Origin: an archaeon
Lineage (GTDB): Archaea; Iainarchaeota; Iainarchaeia; Iainarchaeales; CSSED10-239
Assembly (NCBI GenBank): GCA_041677685.1
Contig: JBAYPN010000006.1
Coordinates: 1-32,000 of the forward strand
Direction: 5' to 3'
Length of the DNA stretch: 32,000 bases
Made by a program: the position numbers and the translations under genes. How positions within the stretch are numbered: the stretch's first letter is position 1; each line of letters begins with the position of its first letter. Below, piece after piece: positions 8,101-23,544 of the stretch. Under the pieces are notes generated by a model, which searched no databases, was not told the DNA's origin, and worked only from the letters and a program-made list of their open reading frames with translations.

Positions 8101-8201
8101 ATTAAAATTATGTTTAAAAAATAAAAACTAGAAAAGAAAAAATTTAGAAAATTAAAATTAAGAATTAAAAGAGAATTGAAAAAATTAAAAGAAAAAAGAA
8201 A

Positions 8202-9371
8202 CTAATCAATAAGATATTTTGAGTATCTTTTTAAAATATCTTTTTTGGTTTCCTTCTCTTCTAGAGCTGACAAGTTTTTAATTAACTTTTTATAATCTGA
8301 AGAAAGTTTACTTGGAACCTCAACAACTACTTTTACAAACAAAGATCCGTAGTTTCCACCTCTATTAACATCAGGTAAACCCTTTCCTTTTAATTTAAAA
8401 ATAGTGTTTGGTTTTGTAGATGAAGGAACTTTAACTTTTAATTTGTCACCAAAGAAATTTAATTTAAAAGTTGTTCCTAAAACAAAGTCTGAGTAAGGTA
8501 AAGGCAATTCACAAAATAGATCTCTATCCTCTCTTTTATAAAATTCATGTTCTTTAACACTTATTCTTAAAAATAAGTCTCCTTTTTCGTTTGAGTGATT
8601 GTGACCTTTCTCTCTTAACTTAATTACATCTTGGGTGTTTATTCCTGCTGGGATGTCAACTGTTAATATTTTTTTTACCTTTACATAGCCTTTTGCTGAA
8701 CAACTACTACAAGGGTCATCAATTATTGTTCCTTTACCTTTACATGTTGGACAAATTGATTCTACAGAAAACATTCCAAAAGGAGTTCTTTTTGAGTTTA
8801 AGACTCTTCCTTGTCCTTTACAGGTAGAACAGGTTTTTGGATTTTTACTTTTTGAACCAGTACCATCACACTCGCTACAAAAGTCATCGACATAGATTTC
8901 TATTTTTTTCTTTCCGCCTTTTACAGCAGTTTCAAAATCTAAATCTAAATTATGAACAATATCTAAATTTTCTTGAGAAGATTGTCTTTTTCTTCTACCT
9001 CCTGAAAACCTTGAAAAGATATTGTCTTCATCATCCATAAATGAGGAGAAGATGTCTGAGAAATTGAAGTCTTGAGTTCCAAAGCCATGAGCTCCAAATC
9101 CACGAGTACTAAAGCCTGAAAAGCCTTGGTCATTTGCTCCTGCCTGTCCACTTGCACCAGCTTGACCAAAGTGATCATATTGTTGTCTTTTTTGTGGATC
9201 AGAAAGAACTGAATAAGCATTACTTATTTCTTTAAATTTTTCTTGATCTGCATTTAGACCAGCTAAGTCAGGGTGATGCTTTCTTGCTAGTTGTTTGTAA
9301 GCAGCTTTTATTTCTTCAGGAGTTGCATTTCTTGAAACTCCTAAAATCTCATAGTAATCTTTTTCAGCCAT
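8202..9371 (-). CDS. dnaJ: Molecular chaperone DnaJ (type I Hsp40)
   Basis: J domain DYYEILGV...KHHPD, a G/F-rich linker, and four CxxCxGxG zinc motifs ([32 protein letters not shown]). Confidence 0.93.
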
Positions 9372-9468: not shown

Positions 9469-12053
<2,585 letters not shown>

Positions 12054-12197: not shown

Positions 12198-12581
12198 CTA
12201 TTTTTTATTTCTTTTTCTTAAAATTACTTCTAAAAATATTGGTTCTCCTTTTTGGTTATAGGCTTTATAATCTTCAACACCAAATGGATGATAGGCAATG
12301 ATATTTACATCCTTTCCTAAAAAGAAGTGAAGATCTGCTCTTGAAGGACCCCCATAACCTGAAGGATGAGAATGAACAGAGCCTTTTAAAGAGAAAATCA
12401 TTGGGGACATGTCAAGTCTTAAAACCGCAGAATTTTCATTACTTACTGTTAGAGGTAAAAAATAGATCTCTTCAATAATGTTTTCTGATAAATATAGTAA
12501 AGCAGAAAATTCCTTAGGGTAAAATGATTTTGAAAAACCCATAATAGAAAACAAGACATCTTTATATATTTTATAAGTCAT
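12198..12581 (-). CDS. Minimal stand-alone JAMM/MPN+ metalloprotease-domain protein
   Basis: 127 aa with a complete JAMM signature: upstream Glu (PKEFSALL), then H-S-H-P-SGYGGP-S-RA-D, which matches HxH-x7-S-x2-D. Confidence 0.75.
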   Translation of the reverse strand: MTYKIYKDVLFSIMGFSKSFYPKEFSALLYLSENIIEEIYFLPLTVSNENSAVLRLDMSPMIFSLKGSVHSHPSGYGGPSRADLHFFLGKDVNIIAYHPFGVEDYKAYNQKGEPIFLEVILRKRNKK

Positions 12582-12659: not shown

Positions 12660-13394
12660 ATGAATGATTTTGGACTTGTTACAGGAGCAACTAGTGGAAT
12701 TGGAATGGAGTATGTTTATGAACTTGCAAAAAGAAAATATAATTTGATTGTTGTTGGGAGAAGGGAAGAGTTGTTAAAATCTCTTAAAAAAGACTTAGAA
12801 AAAAAATATAAAATTAAAGTTGTTTATTTTAAAATAGATTTATCTTTAGAAAAAGATCTAAAAATATTAGAAAATAAGATAAAAAAATATGATATTACTT
12901 TTTTAGTTAATGCTGCTGGCTTTGGTTCAGGTAATTTTTTTACATCAACCCCACTAGACTTTTCTAAGGGTATGGTTAATGTGCATGTTCTTTCTACAGT
13001 CACACTTTGTAAAGTTGTTTTAGAGAAAATGATTCTTAAAAATAAAGGAACAATAATTAATATCTCTTCAATTGCTTCTTACCTTACAGACCCAAAAAGT
13101 TTTGCATTATATAATTCTACAAAATCAGATGTTAGAGTTTTTTCTGTAACTTTACAAAGAGAATTAAAACTTTTAAAAAAGAATATAAAGATACAAGCAC
13201 TTACTCCTGGGCTAGTTAGAACTAACTTTCATATGATGAGAGGGGGAAACACTTATGACAGATATCCTGAGTTTATGTGGATGAATGTAAGAGAAGTTGT
13301 AGGATGTTCTTTTAAATCTTTAAAAAAGAAAAAAGTAATTTGTGTTCCTGGTTTTTTAAATAAGATAATTGTTTTTATATTAAAAATATTTTAG
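12660..13394 (+). CDS. Short-chain dehydrogenase/reductase (SDR) family oxidoreductase
   Basis: Cofactor motif TGATSGIG, NAAG, and catalytic S...YNSTK (YxxxK). 244 aa. Confidence 0.85.
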   Translation: MNDFGLVTGATSGIGMEYVYELAKRKYNLIVVGRREELLKSLKKDLEKKYKIKVVYFKIDLSLEKDLKILENKIKKYDITFLVNAAGFGSGNFFTSTPLDFSKGMVNVHVLSTVTLCKVVLEKMILKNKGTIINISSIASYLTDPKSFALYNSTKSDVRVFSVTLQRELKLLKKNIKIQALTPGLVRTNFHMMRGGNTYDRYPEFMWMNVREVVGCSFKSLKKKKVICVPGFLNKIIVFILKIF

Positions 13395-14572
13395 ATGTAG
13401 AAAAGTAAAGTTGGAAACATAATGTAAGCCATTAACACAACTTTTGGTTTATTAAAGACAATTGGTAGAAAACCAATGGAGATACTTAATAACAATAATG
13501 GAACTGATTTTAGACCAGCAAAGCCTAAAACAATTGCTAAAGAAACAATTAGAATTATTATATTTAATATAAATAAATTAGAAGAGTTTACAAAATCTAT
13601 AATTTTGTCTATAAACAAATATATTAGAAGAACAACTAGACATACACAAACAACAATTATTAAAGAATCATAGAAAAAATTGTAGGCGCTTGGTAATAAA
13701 TTACTATTTTGTAAAATTGCAATATATCCTAACCTTGGTTTAAAAAAATTAATTGCTAAGTATATGGAGAAAATAAAAGCACTTATACTTATACTTGAAT
13801 AAAGAACTATATATTCATTGTTCTTTAATTTCTTTAAAAACTTGTTAACAATTGTTCCTGCTTGAGAAGAACTAAAGGAAGGAATTAAAATTATAAACAA
13901 GGCAGAAAGACTACCTACAAAAGAATAAAATAAAGATCTTTTTGGGAAACTTCTAACAGATTTTGATTGCTTTACAAAACTTTCTTTGTTAAACAAAGAC
14001 ATTATTAATATTGGAAAAGCAAACAACCCTGACACACAAACAATCAATGGGTCTTTAAAAAAGAAATTATATTTTAAAGTAAAAATCCCAAGAGTGCCAG
14101 AAACACAGATTATAAAAAACATAATGGCTCTTGACCTTAAAGTTTTTTCTTGAAAAATAAATAATAATAAAACTATTAATATTGCTAAAGCTATAAACCA
14201 ATAAATTTGGAAGAAAAAAGAAAAAAGAAGAAACAAGAAAGGTAAAAAAACAACTGAAAAGATTGCTCCGAAAAAAGAACCAACCAAGCATAAAAAAATA
14301 CCAGTTTTACTTTCTCCTTTTTGAAAAAACTTCAAAAGAGGAAAGATGTGCATAATTGTTGATTCGGTCGGAATCCCAAATAAAGCTGTTGGGATATAGC
14401 TTGTTATTAAGTGAGACAAACCAATACACAAAAACAAAACAAAATGATCATGAAACACAGTAAAAAAAGAAGTTAGTAAAAAAACATAACCTAAAACATT
14501 AACATGTAAATTTGGAATTAATCCAAAAATAAAACCAATTGCAATTCCTAAAATTATATCTACAAAAATCAT
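13391..14572 (-). CDS. Polytopic membrane protein, TctA/DUF112-family-like permease
   Basis: 393 aa and almost entirely hydrophobic helices. GFIFGLIPNLHVNVLG and IPTALFGIPTESTIMHIFPLLKFFQKGESKTG resemble the two conserved PG-loop motifs of the TctA family. The start overlaps the upstream gene's stop in ATGA (14569-14572). Confidence 0.5.
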   Translation of the reverse strand: MIFVDIILGIAIGFIFGLIPNLHVNVLGYVFLLTSFFTVFHDHFVLFLCIGLSHLITSYIPTALFGIPTESTIMHIFPLLKFFQKGESKTGIFLCLVGSFFGAIFSVVFLPFLFLLFSFFFQIYWFIALAILIVLLLFIFQEKTLRSRAIMFFIICVSGTLGIFTLKYNFFFKDPLIVCVSGLFAFPILIMSLFNKESFVKQSKSVRSFPKRSLFYSFVGSLSALFIILIPSFSSSQAGTIVNKFLKKLKNNEYIVLYSSISISAFIFSIYLAINFFKPRLGYIAILQNSNLLPSAYNFFYDSLIIVVCVCLVVLLIYLFIDKIIDFVNSSNLFILNIIILIVSLAIVLGFAGLKSVPLLLLSISIGFLPIVFNKPKVVLMAYIMFPTLLFYI

Positions 14573-14937
14573 GTTTTTTCAAAATTGTAAACTATCAACT
14601 CAGGTTCAGAATTGTAAATTGTGTATTTTCCTTTCAGACAAATTTTTTCATAATTTAAATAATTTGAATTTAAAGTTGTATATTCTTTTTTAGAAATACT
14701 AAATATTACTGCATCTAAACAAACTGATCTATCACAGATTTTAAAAAACAAATTATTATTTTTTAATTCTAATTGTTTTAAATTCCCACAAACAATAACC
14801 ACTTTTTCTAAAGACTCAGAATTGTCTTTAGTTAGATCTAAGGTCTTAGAAACATATGTCTTTGAAAATAAAATTAAAAGCAAGATACCAATTATTGATA
14901 CAAAAATAACTAATCTTTTAAAAAATAAGCTATTCAT
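14569..14937 (-). CDS. N-terminally membrane-anchored OB-fold-like protein
   Basis: 122 aa. The single N-terminal TM or signal anchor (KRLVIFVSIIGILLLILF) is followed by VVIVCGNLKQLELKNNNLFFKICDRSVCLDAVIF...ICLKGKYTIYNSEPELIV, the alternating pattern of tRNA_anti-type OB folds. ATGA overlaps occur at both ends (14934-14937, 14569-14572). Confidence 0.45.
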   Translation of the reverse strand: MNSLFFKRLVIFVSIIGILLLILFSKTYVSKTLDLTKDNSESLEKVVIVCGNLKQLELKNNNLFFKICDRSVCLDAVIFSISKKEYTTLNSNYLNYEKICLKGKYTIYNSEPELIVYNFEKT

Positions 14938-15437
14938 TCTTTATCAAGCTTTACTTCCTTAATTATTTTTATTGGTTTTTTATTTATTGGAAACTTACTT
15001 AACTCCAATAACACTAAAGCATCTTTTTTATATTTTCTTCTAGTCTTAATGTCATAGATTTTTTTAGACTTATAAAAAGAGTCTGTGATCTTTACTTGAA
15101 CAGATGTTGTCTTACTTGAGACTACAACTCCATAAGTAATATTAAATAAAACTTTATATAAGTAAAAGTAAATTACAACTAAACAAATAAACACCATAAC
15201 AAAATAGATGTTATTTACGTAACCTAAGATTATGAATAATACTAAAATTGAACATAACCCATAACCTATATAATTATACTTTGGTAAAATTAGATTATAT
15301 TCTTCTTTTTCTTTAATAACAAATAGATACAATAAGACTACAAATAATATTTTTAAAAACAAATAACCTGGCAATAATAAATTAACAATTACTCCAAATA
15401 AAAAAATTAATTCTAAATATAATAAATGCTTGTCCAT
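14934..15437 (-). CDS. Membrane protein (3-4 TM) with short basic beta-rich C-terminal domain
   Basis: 167-aa ORF starting 16 nt after the preceding pilin-like gene. The hydrophobic N-terminal two-thirds are followed by GVVVSSKTTSVQVKITDSFYKSKKIYDIK... I cannot confidently assign a family. Confidence 0.5.
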   Translation of the reverse strand: MDKHLLYLELIFLFGVIVNLLLPGYLFLKILFVVLLYLFVIKEKEEYNLILPKYNYIGYGLCSILVLFIILGYVNNIYFVMVFICLVVIYFYLYKVLFNITYGVVVSSKTTSVQVKITDSFYKSKKIYDIKTRRKYKKDALVLLELSKFPINKKPIKIIKEVKLDKE

Positions 15438-15453
15438 AATATACTTTCCTTTT

Positions 15454-15807
15454 TTAATTTAAATATGAGATGTTAACTATTGTTTCATCAAACTTAGTAA
15501 CTTTGTTTATTTTGTCAATAACATCTGTATAGTTAGATTCGTCTATTAGTTCCTCTGTTGTGTTAATCTTTTGTAGATAGACATCAAAGGTAATTTTTTT
15601 GTCTTCTGTTATGTAATTTATTTTCTGTATAACAAAGGAATTGTCTGAAAGACTTATTAACTCTAAAGTTCTATTTTTTATTTTTGAAATTCCAACATTA
15701 ACATCAAAAGTAATGTATAGAGAAGAGATGTAAGCTAAAGATAATATAAAAACAACTGCAAGAATTATTAAAAATTCTACACTAGTTTGCCCTTTATACG
15801 AAAACAT
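15454..15807 (-). CDS. Class III signal peptide (archaeal type IV pilin-like) protein
   Basis: N-terminus MFSYKG/QTSVEFLIILAVVFILSLAYI. This is basic-Gly, then Gln at +1 and Glu at +5, followed by a hydrophobic helix. It overlaps the upstream gene by 14 nt. Confidence 0.7.
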   Translation of the reverse strand: MFSYKGQTSVEFLIILAVVFILSLAYISSLYITFDVNVGISKIKNRTLELISLSDNSFVIQKINYITEDKKITFDVYLQKINTTEELIDESNYTDVIDKINKVTKFDETIVNISYLN

Positions 15808-16273
15808 CTATATCTCCTGTTGTTTCATTTTTTTCAATAGTTATGTAACCACCAAAGCCAGGACCAATTGAATCACAAGAGATGTTGGAATCTCCAATGT
15901 ACAATATTTTTTCAAAAGTACAAATGCTTGTGTCATTATCACAATTTGCTATTGCAGGTTTTGGGTTCTGGCTAGAAATCATAACCTCATAAGTTATTTT
16001 TTTTGTAGTTGAGTCACAACCAACAATCTTTGAAGTTACTGGTAAATAAAAATAAACTGTTCTTTTCCCAAAACCTGAACTGTTTGAAAAACCTGTAATG
16101 TTATCAGCTAAAAGATCAATGTTTTCTTTAGTCTGAGTTAAATTAAAAACATCAGTAACTACGTTTTCTGAAAATTGAGTTGAGGGCAGTAATATTGATT
16201 GAAAAAATAATAAAAAAATAGCTATAAAAATTATATACTCAATTGCAATCTGTGCTCTTTTATTTCTAATCAT
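15794..16273 (-). CDS. Class III signal peptide (pilin-like) protein, Cys- and N-x-S/T-rich globular domain
   Basis: N-terminus MIRNKRA/QIAIEYIIFIAIFLLFF. Four Cys and six N-x-S/T sequons (NLT, NIT, NSS, NDT, NIS, NET). Starts 6 nt after the peptidase stop. Confidence 0.7.
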   Translation of the reverse strand: MIRNKRAQIAIEYIIFIAIFLLFFQSILLPSTQFSENVVTDVFNLTQTKENIDLLADNITGFSNSSGFGKRTVYFYLPVTSKIVGCDSTTKKITYEVMISSQNPKPAIANCDNDTSICTFEKILYIGDSNISCDSIGPGFGGYITIEKNETTGDIDVFV

Positions 16274-16279
16274 ATGTTA

Positions 16280-17401
16280 TCACAAAATAATCCAAATTAT
16301 GTCTCCAAAAATATTTAATAAAATAAAACCTATTAGTATTGAAGGTGTGAAGGGAAGAGACTTTTTAATTCTAATTGTCCTTCCCACTAAATTATTATTA
16401 TATGATTCTTTTAAAAATACTATGTCTTTGTTGGTAACTCCTTTTGCATACCTTGAATCAACTATTAACTTTAAATCTTTAGAAGAATTGAATATTTCTT
16501 TGATTGTTTGGAAGAAATTAAGATGTTTGTAGATTACTTTTTTGTTTTTTAAATAGTAATTGTAATATAGAATATCTCCTTCTTTTAGGTCTGAGAGATT
16601 GATGTACTTACTAAAGATGTCTTCTCTAATAACCTTGTAGACAATCATTAACAGAAGAATAATAATAATTGAAACAAGAATTGAAATAAAGTTTGAAATA
16701 AAAAAAACATTTTTTACAAAAAAAGAATAACCACTAAGCAAGAGATAACAAACACCTAAAAAAATGTAAAAATAACTAATAGAGTAATCCTTTACTTTAT
16801 TAAAAAGAAGGAACAGAACAATTGAAAGAATAAAGATTAAAAGATAAGGGGTGTTTAGGTTAAAGATATTTAAAAAACTTGTAATTAGAAATAACATTAG
16901 GGTTGTGTAAATTATATTTTTAAAATTGCTCTTTGTAAAAAACATATCCTTGATTAAAAGATATTTTCTTTTAAAGAATATATGGAAAAAAGAAATTAAA
17001 ATTAATAGTGGGGCAATTGATAAAACACTTGCAATAAATAAAGTTAAAGAGAAGATAGGTTTAGTAATTATTTCAAAACCTATAAACTGACCAATGTAGT
17101 TTGGGTTGATTGGGGCAAGAGCAGAGATTGCAACAAGTAGTTTAAAATCTCCACCTGCAAAGATACCAAGTTCCCAAAAGATATAAAAGATAACAAAAGA
17201 AATTGTGATTGCTAATAAACTAGTTAAGATAAATTTAAATGAATTAAAATAAATTGATTTGAAAATGTTTGTAAAAAGCCCAATTGCAAATAAAATAAAA
17301 ATTAGAAAGTTAGGAACAATTCTTTCTTTTATATCATAAATTGAGGCAACTATTAAAAACACTAAAATTATTAAAAAAGAAAAAATTGTAAAATCAAACA
17401 T
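16280..17401 (-). CDS. A24-family prepilin/preflagellin peptidase, enlarged (EppA/FlaK-like)
   Basis: The two catalytic Asp contexts are IYDIKERIVPN (first TM region) and FAGGDFKLLVAI (the GxGDxKL-type motif). 373 aa with extra TM helices and a ~90-aa soluble segment before the last TM. Confidence 0.8.
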   Translation of the reverse strand: MFDFTIFSFLIILVFLIVASIYDIKERIVPNFLIFILFAIGLFTNIFKSIYFNSFKFILTSLLAITISFVIFYIFWELGIFAGGDFKLLVAISALAPINPNYIGQFIGFEIITKPIFSLTLFIASVLSIAPLLILISFFHIFFKRKYLLIKDMFFTKSNFKNIIYTTLMLFLITSFLNIFNLNTPYLLIFILSIVLFLLFNKVKDYSISYFYIFLGVCYLLLSGYSFFVKNVFFISNFISILVSIIIILLLMIVYKVIREDIFSKYINLSDLKEGDILYYNYYLKNKKVIYKHLNFFQTIKEIFNSSKDLKLIVDSRYAKGVTNKDIVFLKESYNNNLVGRTIRIKKSLPFTPSILIGFILLNIFGDIIWIIL

Positions 17402-17425: not shown

Positions 17426-17623
17426 TTAAACTAAAGTTGAAAGAATATTATCTCTGTAGGTTAGTATTTTTGCTTTTGCAACAGTAATAAAACTATTTAA
17501 ATTAATAATAACTATGCCTGTTGTAATAACAAGCATCATTCCAAAGATAATCATGATTAGGTATTCTACAGAGATTTGTGCTTTATTATCATTTAAAATG
17601 TTTTTTAATTTTTTTGTAAGCAT
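17426..17623 (-). CDS. Mini pilin (class III signal peptide, Flp-like size)
   Basis: 65 aa: MLTKKLKNILNDNKA/QISVEYLIMIIFGMMLVITTGIVII plus a ~25-aa tail. Lies 24 nt upstream of the peptidase gene. Confidence 0.7.
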   Translation of the reverse strand: MLTKKLKNILNDNKAQISVEYLIMIIFGMMLVITTGIVIINLNSFITVAKAKILTYRDNILSTLV

Positions 17624-19065: not shown

Positions 19066-19284
19066 TTATGATAGTGCATGATCTTGGATTGTTGTTACGT
19101 CTGCAACTTTCTTTGCAGAAGCTTGCTTTAAATATAGACCAACTAATAAAGCTACAAGAATAACCACACCTAAAATAACTAAAAACTCTAAGGACAGTTG
19201 TGCTTTATTGTCTTCTTGTAAAAGGCTTTTCTTCACATTTAATTTTTTTAAAAAAATATTTAATTTCTTTTTTTTATAAATCAT
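19066..19284 (-). CDS. Mini pilin (class III signal peptide, Flp-like size)
   Basis: ...EDNKA/QLSLEFLVILGVVILVALLVGLYL plus a ~20-aa tail. The ATG at 19284 gives an unusually long 27-aa leader. An in-frame GTG at 19236 would give MKKSLLQEDNKA/Q, so the start is uncertain. Confidence 0.65.
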   Translation of the reverse strand: MIYKKKKLNIFLKKLNVKKSLLQEDNKAQLSLEFLVILGVVILVALLVGLYLKQASAKKVADVTTIQDHALS

Positions 19285-19323
19285 ATCTTATCAAATTTTT
19301 AATTTTTATTTCTCTTTCCAAAA

Positions 19324-19414
19324 ATTACTTCTCTTATTTTTTATCAAAACATTACTTCTCTTATTTTTTATCAAAACATTACTTCTCTTATTTTTTATCA
19401 AAACATTATTTCTC
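19324..19414. repeat. 27-bp head-to-tail tandem repeat, 3 perfect copies plus a degenerate fourth
   Basis: attacttctcttattttttatcaaaac at 19324-19350, 19351-19377 and 19378-19404, then attatttctc... Degenerate similarity extends on both flanks. It lies between the platform gene stop (19511) and the first pilin start (19284). Confidence 0.95.
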
Positions 19415-19510: not shown

Positions 19511-20410
19511 CTAAATCATCCCTGACAACATTGTTGTTAAAATAAATTGAGAGATTGCGTACACAATATATGCAATTGTTAATAGTGCAGGAAAGTAAAT
19601 TGTAACATTTGTTAACTTACCTTCCCTCATCATCGCTATCATTGCTGAAGCTGCAAGTGTCATAATTACAATATAAATATCTAATAATAAATAAATTGAA
19701 CTTTGGGCCTTTATAGCAATTTCTAATGCCCCTGCAGCAGCTATTCCACTATCTATTGCAACCTGTGAAAGAAACTGAGTAATTACTCTTGTTAATCCAA
19801 AAATAAATGGAGCAATCACACCAGCAGCAGCAACAATAAAAATTGTTTGTAACATTGTTTTTGTTAACCTTTCTTTCTTTACTCTAAACAAATATTTTGT
19901 ATCATTTGCAATCTCTTCTAAAACCTCTGCCAACTGAGCACCTGTTCTTAAAGACTCTTGAATTAATGTTACTGTCCTTTTTATAATTTTAGAGTCAACC
20001 CTTATTGTTAAATAGGTAAGAGCAACATGTAGGTTGTCCCCCATCTCTAATCTCCTAATCACACCATTAATCTCTTCAGAAAGATCTCCATAATCAGAGG
20101 TTGCAACTTCCCTTAATGCAAAATCAAAAGAAGAGCCTGCTTTCATAGTGTCTGCAATTAGTTTAAGAGCATCTGGCCAATATCTTTCAATATTTTTAAT
20201 ATGATTTAAATATTTATAAATTGGGATACCTATCCCTAGATCTAAAATAATAACAAACAATAAAATCCCTACCTTTATATTAATTAAAAAACCAATTACA
20301 CCTAATAGTAAAGATGCAATAATTATTGCTAAAAACCAATAGTTTGCTGGGATCTTTATCTTTAAAGAATAAAGATATATTTGATATTTTTCTAAAAATT
20401 TTGATTTCAT
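19511..20410 (-). CDS. Type II secretion system F-domain platform protein (single domain, TadC/EpdK-like)
   Basis: 299 aa. TM helices flank a cytoplasmic T2SSF-type helical domain (ALREVATSDYGDLSEEINGVIRRLEMGDNLHVALTYL...LIQESLRTGAQLAEVLEEIANDT). Confidence 0.75.
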   Translation of the reverse strand: MKSKFLEKYQIYLYSLKIKIPANYWFLAIIIASLLLGVIGFLINIKVGILLFVIILDLGIGIPIYKYLNHIKNIERYWPDALKLIADTMKAGSSFDFALREVATSDYGDLSEEINGVIRRLEMGDNLHVALTYLTIRVDSKIIKRTVTLIQESLRTGAQLAEVLEEIANDTKYLFRVKKERLTKTMLQTIFIVAAAGVIAPFIFGLTRVITQFLSQVAIDSGIAAAGALEIAIKAQSSIYLLLDIYIVIMTLAASAMIAMMREGKLTNVTIYFPALLTIAYIVYAISQFILTTMLSGMI

Positions 20411-20417
20411 TTCATAA

Positions 20418-21560
20418 TCACAATTTTGGTTCTATCATTTTTATATAATATACTAAGACTATAAAGATTATTGGCATAGCTACTAAAAAAATTAAACTTA
20501 AAGTTGTTGGAGTCATTATTCCTGGCAAAAATAATTCCCCACCTTGCCCTAAAGGAGCATTTGCAATTGCACCTAAGATTGCTGCAAAAACAGGAAGAAC
20601 AATTGCCATAAAAATAAAAATTACACCAAAAAAGTTCATTTTCTCTCCAAACACTTTTGCTGACTCTAACAGATCAAAGGAAACTGCATCTGCAACACTG
20701 TTAATTGTGTTTGCTAAGTTACCACCTGTGTTTAATGTTCTTACAATATGTGATAAAGCAATACTATAGTTTCTTGATTGACTTCTTAAAGCTGCATGCC
20801 TTAAGGCAGTTTTTGTATCTGTTCCATTTTCAATTTCCAAAATTGATCTTGCCATCTCTTCAGACAAAACTCCATAATCGTTTTTTGCAACAGATTGTAG
20901 AACTTTATATAGTCCGATACCTGCTTGTAACTCTGTGGCAATATGTCTTAGAGCAAAAGGCAACTCTATATCAATTAAGACCCCTCTTGATTTTGCTTTC
21001 TGCATTGGTATAAAGTAAGCAAAGACTACCATTAATATTATAAAAATTAGCACTAAAATAAAAGGTATAGTTATTAGTAAAATAGGCTTTACTAAAGAAA
21101 AAAGAACTAATAAAAAAAATGAGAAAAAAGCTGCCCCTAAAACTGAAAAAATTGCAGAAAAAATTAAGTGTTGAACTAAGGTTCTTTTATTATTTGCAGA
21201 GGTTAGGTAAAAAGATATCTTTTTTGCAATTTTATTTTTTAAAATTATTAAAACAATTTTGTCTATCAATCCTTTTAGAGGTTTATATAACTTAACTGTA
21301 CTTTTCTCTAAATCTGAACTTGAATGCCCTAAGATTTTTGTTTCTGCATCAATATCTAATTTTGAAAGTTTTCCTTCTGAAATGATGTCTCTTAATTCTT
21401 TTAGATGTCCTTCTGACATGGCTGATCCTGTACCATCTAAGCTTGATTTCTTTTTCATCTTAGACACAATATTTTGCACAGCATCAAGATCAATGTCAAG
21501 TTCATCTTTTGACTTACTATCATTTTTTTTAAGTGTCTTTAAAGTTTTTGAGTCAACCAT
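20418..21560 (-). CDS. Type II secretion system F-domain platform protein (single domain, TadB/EpdJ-like) with ~120-aa charged N-terminal extension
   Basis: 380 aa. T2SSF-type domain ALRHIATELQAGIGLYKVLQSVAKNDYGVLSEEMARSILEIENGTDTKTAL...VRTLNTGGNLANTINSVAD. Lies 7 nt upstream of the second platform gene. Confidence 0.75.
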   Translation of the reverse strand: MVDSKTLKTLKKNDSKSKDELDIDLDAVQNIVSKMKKKSSLDGTGSAMSEGHLKELRDIISEGKLSKLDIDAETKILGHSSSDLEKSTVKLYKPLKGLIDKIVLIILKNKIAKKISFYLTSANNKRTLVQHLIFSAIFSVLGAAFFSFFLLVLFSLVKPILLITIPFILVLIFIILMVVFAYFIPMQKAKSRGVLIDIELPFALRHIATELQAGIGLYKVLQSVAKNDYGVLSEEMARSILEIENGTDTKTALRHAALRSQSRNYSIALSHIVRTLNTGGNLANTINSVADAVSFDLLESAKVFGEKMNFFGVIFIFMAIVLPVFAAILGAIANAPLGQGGELFLPGIMTPTTLSLIFLVAMPIIFIVLVYYIKMIEPKL

Positions 21561-21726: not shown

Positions 21727-23544
21727 CTAACTTTTACTTTTTATATATTCTAATTGTATCTCTTTAGACACATCAGAAATGCTTCTAATATTTTTTGTAA
21801 TCAAATTATTTAACACATTAATTTTATTCTCAATTTGTTTTTTAATATCTTGGTCATCAAAATTTGTGTAAGCTTTAACTGTTTCAAAAAACTTAATTGG
21901 TTTTTCTGTTCTTTCAAGAGTGTCTGTTTCTGGGTTCCATTTAAAGATAATATTTACTTTTGCATCATTTTCTAAAACATCTAAAATCTCTGCAATTGCA
22001 GTTATTCTTCTTACTTGCCCTTTTGCTGATCTTAGCCTTTTTTGAATAATTATAAAATCTACACCTGCAAGCATCAACGGAGGAACACTCATTGGAGGAG
22101 ATGTAATTCTTACAATTGTTTCTTTTGCAGAATTGGCGTGAATTGTCCCCATACATCCATCGTGACCTGTGTTCATGGCGGTGAACAATGTTGTTGCTTC
22201 TGTGTGCCTAATTTCACCTACAATTATTCTGTCAGGTCTCATTCTTAAAGTGTTTTTTGTTAAAATCTCTAAACTTAGTTCTCCTTTTCCTTCTAAACCA
22301 GGAGGCCTTCCTTCAAATCTAATTACATGCTTGATTGGAAGTTTAAGTTCTGCTGTGTCTTCAATTGTTAAAACTCTATCAGCTTCTGGAATAAAGTTTG
22401 CAAGAACATTAAGAGTTGTTGTTTTTCCTGAACCTGTTCCACCTGAGATTAAAACATTTGCTGGCTTTGCTCCAAATCCTTCAACAGCACACCATAAAAA
22501 GGCTGCAACCTCTGCGTTTAAGGTTTTAAAAGTTATTAGGTCTACTATGGTGTAAGGATCTTCTCTAAACTTTCTAATTGTTATTGTTGAACCATCAATT
22601 GAGGCTGGAGGGTAAGTTGCATTAACACGGGAACCATCTGGAAGTCTTGCATCTAACAAAGGTGTTGAAATGTCTACTTGTCTACCAAGGGTTCTTGCAA
22701 TTTTGTCAACAATATCTTGGATACCCTCATCTGAATAAAAGGTAATGTTTGTTGTCATCATACCATAAGAGACATGATAGACATACACTGGTTTTTTAGG
22801 ACCAACAACCATAATTTCCTCTAACTTGTCATCATCTAACAAAGGTTCTAAGACACCATAACCAGTCATCTCTTTAACAACTGAATTTGCATAGAAGGGA
22901 TATAGGTGTTTTGGAATATTAATTTCTGAAGCATTTTCTAAGATATCTATGATCTTTTGATAATATATGTTTTTTCTTTGTAAAGGATCTCTTATCTTGT
23001 AAGGATCTGTGGATATTAGTCTTGTTGTTGCTTCCTTTAAAGTATTAATTATTAATTTTTGAGAAGGTGTTGGTTTTGGAACTGGAATCTTATAGTGAAG
23101 TAGTGATTGGTTTTTTAATCTATAAATTTCTACATCTCCATACTTGGTTATCAAGTGAGCAGAATCATCTAACAACTTATTTTCAAATTCTCTTTCTGGA
23201 ACCTGGGAGATGTCTATTGGTTTTTTAGTTTTTGTTTCTGAAAAAGAGTCTAACTCTTCAAAGGAAGACTTTTTATTTAAAGAATCAAAGTCATTATCTT
23301 TAATTTCTTTTGATAATTTTGAAGATAAACTATTTATGGAGTTGTCTTTAGAATCTTCTTTGTCAACTACAAAATTACTTTTAGTATCTTTATCGCTTTT
23401 AAAATCATCTTCAATATCTTTAGAAATATCTCTACTATTTTGATTTAAAGAAATATCATCAATTGACTTAACTTTAAAAGAATCTTCTTCTGTTTTATAT
23501 TTTTTAATCAAATTATCTAATTGTGACCCTGCCAAAAAAAACAC
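21727..23544 (-). CDS. Type II/IV secretion system ATPase (archaeal pilus assembly ATPase, FlaI/TadA/EpdL-like) with acidic Ser-rich N-terminal extension
   Basis: Walker A SGGTGSGKTTTLN, Asp box VLTIEDTAELKL, Walker B RPDRIIVGEIR, His box TGHDGCMGTIHANS, and N-domain GYGVLEPLLDD. No ATG occurs before the conserved N-domain, so the start must be non-ATG: GTG at 23544, or TTG at 23535, which lies 6 nt after an AGGTG. Confidence 0.85.
   Translation of the reverse strand: MFFLAGSQLDNLIKKYKTEEDSFKVKSIDDISLNQNSRDISKDIEDDFKSDKDTKSNFVVDKEDSKDNSINSLSSKLSKEIKDNDFDSLNKKSSFEELDSFSETKTKKPIDISQVPEREFENKLLDDSAHLITKYGDVEIYRLKNQSLLHYKIPVPKPTPSQKLIINTLKEATTRLISTDPYKIRDPLQRKNIYYQKIIDILENASEINIPKHLYPFYANSVVKEMTGYGVLEPLLDDDKLEEIMVVGPKKPVYVYHVSYGMMTTNITFYSDEGIQDIVDKIARTLGRQVDISTPLLDARLPDGSRVNATYPPASIDGSTITIRKFREDPYTIVDLITFKTLNAEVAAFLWCAVEGFGAKPANVLISGGTGSGKTTTLNVLANFIPEADRVLTIEDTAELKLPIKHVIRFEGRPPGLEGKGELSLEILTKNTLRMRPDRIIVGEIRHTEATTLFTAMNTGHDGCMGTIHANSAKETIVRITSPPMSVPPLMLAGVDFIIIQKRLRSAKGQVRRITAIAEILDVLENDAKVNIIFKWNPETDTLERTEKPIKFFETVKAYTNFDDQDIKKQIENKINVLNNLITKNIRSISDVSKEIQLEYIKSKS

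Follow-up and report, generated by a model that had tools for sequence, protein, structure and literature searches.

Results

A type IV pilus operon that continues into three membrane protein genes

We examined a 32,000-nt stretch of DNA (positions 1 to 32,000 of contig JBAYPN010000006.1, GenBank assembly GCA_041677685.1; hereafter the window) from a tiny, host-dependent archaeon of the phylum Iainarchaeota (DPANN), lineage CSSED10-239. The window is AT-rich (~25-30% GC). A type IV pilus locus of the archaeal kind, complete in its parts, lies on the minus strand and comprises a T2SSE ATPase, T2SSF/TadC platform proteins, pilins that bear class III signal peptides and an A24 prepilin peptidase. 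The locus runs on into a trio of genes encoding a 167-amino acid (aa) DUF2101-like membrane protein, a 122-aa protein with one transmembrane (TM) helix and a predicted oligonucleotide/oligosaccharide-binding (OB) fold, and a 393-aa TctA-like permease (Table 1). The last two genes recur as a pair across DPANN, while the DUF2101 protein and the fusion to a pilus operon are specific to Iainarchaeota.

A first-pass annotation of the same DNA, made by a model from the letters alone, had described seven minus-strand open reading frames (ORFs), from the mini-pilin to the permease gene, as one tightly spaced run. We verified all seven, and their coordinates, gaps (24, 6, -14, 16, -4 and -4 nt, in order) and ATGA stop/start overlaps were confirmed on re-reading the sequence. 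The 16-nt spacer before the 167-aa gene leaves no room for an intergenic promoter, and co-transcription and translational coupling of the trio with the pilus genes, as the annotation had proposed, are plausible from this spacing. Other gaps in the genome are just as short (RFC, replication factor C, to T2SSE, 0 nt; GrpE to DnaK, 2 nt). Since unrelated gene pairs are equally tight in this compact genome, the spacing alone argues for co-transcription and not for shared function. A scan for sigma-70 promoters and intrinsic terminators gave 91 promoter-like sites against 77 expected, which is uninformative for an AT-rich archaeon, and no conclusion was drawn from it.

Table 1. Genes and junctions of the pilus locus and the adjoining trio, in minus-strand order
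Feature	Position in window	Strand	Evidence and remarks
Pilus assembly ATPase, T2SSE family; the sole one in the locus	21727..23544	-	PF00437, E=8e-48
TadC/T2SSF-like platform protein	20418..21560	-	PF00482, E=4e-16
TadC/T2SSF-like platform protein	19511..20410	-	PF00482, E=2e-16
Pilin, 72 aa	19066..19284	-	PF04021, E=2e-6
Pilin, 171 aa	18317..18832	-	PF04021, E=6e-8
Pilin, 155 aa	17697..18164	-	PF04021, E=1e-7
Mini-pilin, 65 aa; starts the tightly spaced run	17426..17623	-	Class III signal, E=0.0017; 73-nt gap upstream
Archaeal prepilin peptidase A24 with archaeal C-terminal domain	16280..17401	-	PF01478, E=4.6e-13; PF06819, E=5.3e-11
Pilin-like, 159 aa, candidate minor pilin	15794..16273	-	Weak class III signal, E=0.00095; position conserved
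Pilin-like, 117 aa, candidate minor pilin	15454..15807	-	Weak class III signal, E=0.0025; position kept in all Iainarchaeota loci
16-nt spacer, pilin-like gene / DUF2101-like gene	15438..15453	-	AAAAGGAAAGTATATT; Shine-Dalgarno-like AGGA; read from sequence
Predicted divergent DUF2101 membrane protein, 167 aa	14934..15437	-	Clade profile, hhalign, position in L026
ATGA stop/start overlap, DUF2101-like gene to OB gene	14934..14937	-	Read from sequence; TGA stop
Single-TM OB-fold protein (predicted), 122 aa	14569..14937	-	Sub-cutoff Pfam OB matches, AlphaFold2 model, family profiles
ATGA stop/start overlap, OB gene to TctA-like gene	14569..14572	-	Read from sequence; TGA stop
TctA-like permease, 393 aa, archaeal ~400-aa type	13391..14572	-	PF01970, full-length match
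JAB/MPN protein, downstream neighbour of the TctA-like gene	12198..12581	-	PF14464, E=1.7e-4; membership in the unit uncertain

The TctA-like permease

The 393-aa protein matched the TctA family (PF01970) at E=7.1e-27, with 94.5 bits against a cutoff of 28.9 and over model positions 4-422 of 423. The first-pass annotation had recognised its TctA-like character and had called for searches against both TctA and ComEC. For the ComEC signatures (Competence PF03772 and DUF4131) no match at E<=1 was obtained with any of the three trio proteins, and ComEC homology of the trio was rejected. A profile search returned 459 TctA-like relatives at E<=1e-5, most of them from DPANN, and all named sources among the top 120 profile matches were DPANN. 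None of the three proteins has a model in NCBIfam, and a sequence search of the PDB with the TctA profile gave nothing useful, with no solved homolog by sequence.

Such a complete family match would suit an ordinary secondary transporter, in which the TctA-like protein imports a small solute (an organic acid or a nucleotide), the DUF2101 protein acts as an analogue of TctB, the OB protein is an unconventional binding component and the position behind the pilus genes is inherited synteny. The layout itself, with a small membrane protein, an extracytoplasmic domain and a large permease, mirrors TctC-TctB-TctA. Against this, TctB (PF07331) and TctC (PF03401) gave no match at E<=1 in the trio, nor in the other ORFs that were scanned in the window; TctB also failed to match, at the same threshold, any of 20 family members of the 167-aa protein. 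Identity of the small proteins with TctB or TctC was therefore rejected. We regard the solute transporter as unlikely, for this and for the genomic and genetic reasons given below.

The single-TM OB-fold protein

The 122-aa protein scored below the Pfam cutoff of 27 bits with the OB models PF13742 and PF01336 (20.4 and 18.1 bits); its homologs in loci L025, L024 and L026 scored above it (54.6, 39.6 and 28.6 bits, respectively). The profile of the window's OB clade matched the OB proteins of Woesearchaeota and Nanoarchaeia type that pass the Pfam cutoff. When the TM helix was removed, ectodomain-only profiles of the two OB groups still aligned with each other (hhalign 95.8%, E=7e-9), and reciprocal ectodomain HMMs matched 49/53 and 11/11 members.

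A search with a fused profile of the 167-aa and OB proteins returned 167-aa homologs alone, leaving no OB alignment for structure prediction. The single-sequence AlphaFold2 (AF2) model (pLDDT 67) had a TM helix at residues 3-24 followed by b1-b2-b3-alpha-b4-b5, with strands at 46-59, 62-69 and 72-78, a helix at 83-93 and strands at 99-110 and 116-119. The five predicted strands, with a helix between the third and the fourth, follow the OB order. With Foldseek the model found weak matches in the PDB, nearly all of them OB folds and none significant (E>=0.2); a PDB sequence search with the OB profile gave nothing useful. Hence the OB domain that the first-pass annotation had suspected holds in the model and in the family profiles.

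Flanking charges were biased toward an N-in/C-out orientation in 54 of 68 OB family members and toward the reverse in 6, and therefore the OB domain is probably extracytoplasmic, as the annotation had also expected. In the main Iainarchaeota clade the OB domain has an invariant CxxxxC pair (C68 and C73), which is not found in the OB proteins of L024-L027 and might form an extracytoplasmic disulfide or bind a metal.

The DUF2101-like protein

No Pfam model, PF09874 (DUF2101) included, matched the window's 167-aa protein at E<=1, and among 20 members of its clade only 3 matched PF09874, weakly (best E=0.033). A profile of the clade, searched against 1.84 billion representatives, returned 13 clusters with a lone outlier, protein P0170, which it reached at E=1.4e-5. 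P0170, with 49.1 bits against PF09874 (cutoff 22), is a bona fide member of DUF2101, labelled by NCBI as a DUF2101 family protein of a Diapherotrites archaeon, and hhalign aligned it with the 167-aa clade at 94.7% (E=6e-8) over 153 columns. In L026 the P0170 gene follows the second pilin-like gene and precedes the OB-TctA pair, matching the position of the 167-aa gene. Thus, on profile-profile and positional evidence, we assign the 167-aa protein to DUF2101 as a divergent member. DUF2101 (PF09874) comprises archaeal predicted membrane proteins, and the window protein by itself falls short of the Pfam model.

The protein has a hydrophobic N-terminal part (two hairpins) and a basic five-stranded beta-barrel. 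The AF2 model (pLDDT 87.8) showed a helical membrane part and placed the barrel at residues 100-162. Foldseek related this barrel to CspA, RPA14, the aIF5A OB domain and S1 domains; the probabilities were high, the E-values non-significant. As neither this barrel nor the OB domain had a significant Foldseek match, only the fold class was used. The C-terminal part is strongly basic in 28/28 family members, and by the positive-inside rule the barrel is probably cytoplasmic. The first-pass annotation had seen three or four TM helices and a basic beta-rich tail, which stands; it had missed the DUF2101 identity. Its sketches of the other two products, a TM helix with an OB-like pattern and a TctA-like polytopic protein, likewise stand.

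Many homologs (P0054-P0070; alignment A6, columns 165-214) are extended at the C-terminus by 30-50 lysine-rich residues, the last of them KKKKKK; this extension is missing from the window copy. An NfeD-like membrane-plus-OB architecture, considered for the 167-aa protein, was shown by neither Pfam nor Foldseek. In the literature searched, no paper mentioned DUF2101, and neither a function nor a genomic association was found for it.

Conservation within Iainarchaeota

The same layout recurs for the window's species in several metagenomes. A genome scan with the closer TctA alignment found 8 genomes, all of Iainarchaeota (Diapherotrites) and including the complete genome of Candidatus (Ca.) Forterrea multitransposorum (L023), which carries the same pilus-DUF2101-OB-TctA locus. 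In all of these genomes, the order was RFC, the pilus locus, A24, two pilin-like genes, DUF2101-like, OB, TctA, in some an opposite-strand short-chain dehydrogenase/reductase (SDR) gene, JAB, GrpE and DnaK; the order of the pilus genes and the trio was the same in every Iainarchaeota locus examined, L026 among them. The block from RFC to DnaK is wholly syntenic in the main clade, and the unrelated RFC and T2SSE genes abut within it, as a solute transporter that merely inherited its place would lead one to expect.

L026 is the informative case. It comes from a diverged lineage (43% GC) with a TctA identity of 24% and an A24 identity of 25%, and it retains, in order, the pilus genes, A24, the pilin-like genes, DUF2101, OB, TctA and JAB. 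Its upstream neighbour is an aminoacyl-tRNA synthetase gene in place of RFC. The pilus linkage thus persists where the RFC adjacency has been lost, which counts against inherited synteny as the reason for the position of the trio.

In L019 (Ca. Iainarchaeum metagenome-assembled genome, JBBISB010000001, 9600-11200) one in-frame stop interrupts the OB gene, and the TctA-like gene is broken by several stops and frameshifts. The other genes detected in the block are all intact (the pilus genes, A24, DUF2101-like, SDR, JAB, GrpE and DnaK). The pattern resembles a joint decay of the pair, or perhaps an assembly error, and decay of both genes beside intact pilus genes suggests that OB and TctA form a single functional unit, without which the pilus can do.

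The OB-TctA pair outside Iainarchaeota

Woesearchaeota, Nanoarchaeia and Pacearchaeota are rich in TctA-like proteins. We surveyed 80 metagenome loci of Woesearchaeota or Nanoarchaeia type, in 64 of which the upstream sequence was sufficient to judge. The OB gene was directly upstream of the TctA-like gene, on the same strand and with coupled junctions, in 30/64 loci and elsewhere in the locus in 21/64; it was not found near the TctA-like gene in the other 13/64. Gaps at the OB/TctA junction of such pairs were 1, -4, -1, -11 and -8 nt. In two further lineages the OB gene lay 0.8-3 kb from the TctA-like gene. Neither a DUF2101 homolog nor JAB was near the TctA-like gene in any of the 80 loci (0/80 each), and a pilus machinery gene of any kind was near it in 1/80.

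In individual loci of Woesearchaeota and Nanoarchaeia (L024:2900-17500 and L025:1-18100), OB stands immediately upstream of TctA, and the conserved neighbourhood of the pair consists of genes that handle DNA and RNA, with PolD DP2 and DP1, Cdc6, a Hef helicase-nuclease, LigT, PAN and a TraB-like gene, and not pilus genes. In L095:8922-11930 an A24 peptidase gene (PF01478, E=3e-14) lies ~1 kb downstream of TctA and on its strand, and neither ATPase nor platform genes are close by; as this is 1 of 28 well-flanked loci, about the chance level, it was rejected as independent pilus linkage.

The pairing of OB and TctA across DPANN without DUF2101 or pilus genes identifies the pair as the conserved core. 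The fixed trio of the first-pass annotation accordingly does not hold. Its proposal that the trio is tied to pilus genes stood in all Iainarchaeota loci, L026 included, and failed for the core pair, which in other DPANN occupies pilus-free loci; the annotation had itself named an occurrence at unrelated loci as grounds for calling the adjacency accidental, and this was found in part. The separation of the pair from pilus genes in other DPANN classes is also what a solute transporter would predict; the absence of DUF2101 from the 80 loci means that it cannot be an obligatory subunit of such a transporter.

Remaining pilus genes and neighbours of the locus

The PF04021 pilin signal was above the cutoff in three proteins and weaker in four. 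The gaps around the three upstream pilin genes are 152, 233 and 226 nt. The 226-nt region, just upstream of the pilin gene at 19066-19284, contains a 27-nt tandem repeat (3.6 copies, 97% identity, 19319-19414), which could be a regulatory or phase-variable element. Against NCBIfam, the nearest models to the A24 peptidase were EppA and then FlaK, both far below cutoff. No PilT-like second ATPase was found in the locus, which has one T2SSE ATPase, and the "retractile-type fibre" of the first-pass annotation is therefore not borne out. Nor does the prs gene, which the annotation had cited as nearby support for salvage, belong to the unit: it lies 9 kb off, beyond unrelated genes.

Downstream, the JAB/MPN protein of the window has an intact JAMM-type motif (HSHPSG...D), and the opposite-strand SDR gene stands between it and the TctA-like gene. 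JAB directly follows TctA in L014, L015, L018, L020 and L021, and in L026 a 107-aa gene separates the two. The unit may include JAB as a fourth member. In L007:12543-20609 the conserved block is interrupted between JAB and GrpE by a gene whose 2688-aa product, a predicted surface protein, contains repeated CHB_HEX_C and Fn3_assoc domains. The GrpE gene (11367-12053) contains a perfect 9-nt repeat (9.9 copies, 11830-11918) encoding (QED)n in the N-terminus; GrpE is 210, 225 or 228 aa long among metagenome strains of the same species, which suggests a repeat-length polymorphism between strains. In L001:783-3624 and L003:1953-4794, public gene calls run past the TGA stops of the A24, 167-aa and OB genes (374, 175 and 125 aa, against 373, 167 and 122 aa). 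This is an artefact of annotation and no biological difference; for those samples the caller probably used a code in which TGA is a sense codon.

Discussion

A pair resembling one known from archaeal transformation

A transposon screen in Methanococcus maripaludis, published in 2023, found two adjacent genes, MMJJ_13020 and MMJJ_13030, both essential for natural transformation (PMC10133366). MMJJ_13020 encodes a single-TM OB protein and MMJJ_13030 a protein that is TctA-like and has 11 TM helices; in-frame deletion of either abolished transformation and was complemented, and a TctA-like homolog in Methanoculleus thermophilus was likewise essential (PMC10133366). Genes of a type IV-like pilus and the eppA peptidase gene were also required, and the authors proposed the TctA-like protein as the DNA transporter of archaea, since these are without ComEC (PMC10133366). 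Our pair has the architecture described there, with a single-TM OB protein encoded directly upstream of a TctA-like permease, in the same order and without TctB or TctC. The statement of the first-pass annotation that no described pilus system contains such genes is accordingly outdated, because the pair had already been described as a transformation determinant. Its idea of a pilus-associated import of nucleic acid agrees with the Methanococcus genetics.

The two settings also differ. The locus tags of the Methanococcus pair (13020/30) are far from those of its pilus genes (epd 08190-08290 and 10560-10580), and DUF2101 is not named in that study (PMC10133366), whereas in Iainarchaeota the pair is the 3′ end of the pilus operon with a DUF2101 gene ahead of it. 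The screen had also recovered an insertion near a TraB-like gene, which was unconfirmed by deletion (PMC10133366). Our literature searches on DUF112, DUF2101, follow-ups of TctA-like transformation and pilus-borne DNA uptake in DPANN found nothing beyond this study and the Forterrea genome paper (PMC5905446). What is new here is the fusion to the pilus operon, DUF2101, previously unlinked to such a system, as a third component, and a candidate DNA-uptake machine in a DPANN context.

A candidate DNA-uptake module

We lean, somewhat beyond even odds, toward a reading in which the trio, added to the end of the pilus operon, is a membrane module associated with DNA uptake, and the locus looks like a self-contained DNA-uptake operon. 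In Iainarchaeota the OB/TctA-like pair would have been joined, along with a DUF2101 protein, to a type IV pilus operon. The pilus, composed of the pilins, the two minor pilin-like proteins, the A24 peptidase, one ATPase and two platform proteins, would capture extracellular DNA. On the outer face, the membrane-anchored OB domain would cooperate with the TctA-like permease, which would be either the DNA conduit or otherwise indispensable for DNA crossing the membrane. In the cytoplasm, the basic CspA/S1/OB-like barrel of DUF2101, often with a poly-lysine tail, may receive or hold the incoming nucleic acid. Once imported, the DNA would supply both nucleotide salvage and homologous recombination.

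Perhaps the pair and DUF2101 instead serve the pilus or the cell surface, and assemble, anchor, modify or operate the filament, so that the transformation defect in Methanococcus would be indirect. The trio does stand, through coupled junctions, behind the genes for the prepilin peptidase and two minor-pilin-like proteins; oligosaccharides and proteins are also among the ligands of OB folds, and the ectodomain of the OB protein is acidic. The Methanococcus pair mutants also share the phenotype of the pilus mutants, and piliation is unmentioned in the text of that paper (PMC10133366). We consider a pilus accessory role quite improbable, though, as the pilus genes of L019 are intact while its OB and TctA genes have decayed, the pair in most DPANN lies beside replication and repair genes (PolD, Cdc6 and Hef) and apart from pilus genes, and a basic, predicted cytoplasmic DUF2101 barrel is hard to tie to an extracellular fibre. 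As for the solute transporter, the Methanococcus genetics, which link such a pair to transformation, speak against it as well (PMC10133366).

Several points weigh against a DNA-uptake module. Tight spacing is non-specific in the compact source genome, and synteny within Iainarchaeota is by itself weak evidence, given that the flanks are conserved too. Outside the phylum the pair is not near pilus genes (1/80, about chance level). Across the family most OB ectodomains are acidic: their net charge averages -4.4, and it is positive in only 9/68 members; this is unlike a general DNA binder, as a solute transporter would have it, and weakens simple DNA capture by the OB domain. The Foldseek matches of the OB and DUF2101 barrels are both statistically non-significant. 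We infer the orthology of the window pair to MMJJ_13020/13030 from family, architecture and gene order, and not from a sequence comparison. The TctA family is known for small-molecule carriers, and a DNA conduit of the TctA type is unproven even in Methanococcus. In the text of the Methanococcus paper the words "piliated" and "electron microscopy" do not occur, and a piliation check of the mutants is unmentioned (PMC10133366). Finally, since DUF2101 is intact in L019 despite the decayed OB and TctA genes, its tie to the pair is unproven.

A stronger form of the DNA-uptake proposal is possible but doubtful. In it, Iainarchaeota would have a complete single-operon DNA-uptake machine, with the pilus, OB as the receptor on the outside, the TctA-like protein as translocon and DUF2101 as the cytoplasmic DNA acceptor and a missing third component of the archaeal DNA translocase; it would serve mainly to feed on DNA from the environment, and recombination would be a by-product. 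Feeding is put first because nucleotide salvage is the only identified energy route: the genome of Ca. Forterrea is reported to encode no nucleotide synthesis, and nucleotide salvage with RuBisCO is its sole identified energy-yielding route (PMC5905446). The Forterrea population structure is shaped by homologous recombination, and the paper speculates on the uptake of external DNA, with pili and transporters unmentioned in its text (PMC5905446). The scavenging argument of the first-pass annotation fits this organism, which has the same locus.

Comparison with bacterial competence and TctABC

The proposed module would be alike in outline to bacterial competence (type IV pilus, ComEA and ComEC), as both would have a filament, an extracytoplasmic nucleic-acid-binding fold, a large polytopic protein and cytoplasmic DNA-binding partners. 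The N-terminal domain of ComEC is an OB fold, too. There is no homology between the two, however: the large protein here is a TctA-family permease, and neither a metallo-beta-lactamase nuclease domain nor a ComEA helix-hairpin-helix (HhH) domain is present.

With TctABC from the family of tripartite tricarboxylate transporters (TTT), for which citrate transport is cited in PMC10133366, the locus shares a bona fide PF01970 large subunit and a three-gene layout with a small 4-TM protein and an extracytoplasmic component. It differs in the size of the permease (~393 aa against ~500 aa), in having an anchored 80-90-aa OB fold in place of a ~300-aa solute-binding protein, in the lack of TctB and TctC homology, and in the basic, predicted cytoplasmic barrel of the small membrane protein.

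Significance

Archaea are without ComEC, and for the passage of DNA through their membrane the only candidate has been the OB/TctA-like pair from one transposon screen. The locus described here offers independent comparative evidence that ties this pair to type IV pili, in the form of a tight operon kept phylum-wide despite deep divergence. It also nominates DUF2101 as a new, testable component with a basic, predicted cytoplasmic barrel of a nucleic-acid-binding type. For DPANN archaea that are without nucleotide synthesis, are apparently energised by nucleotide salvage and recombine, it would be a concrete candidate machine for DNA acquisition. The presence of the pair in Woesearchaeota, Nanoarchaeia and Pacearchaeota suggests that the capacity for DNA uptake may be widespread in DPANN.

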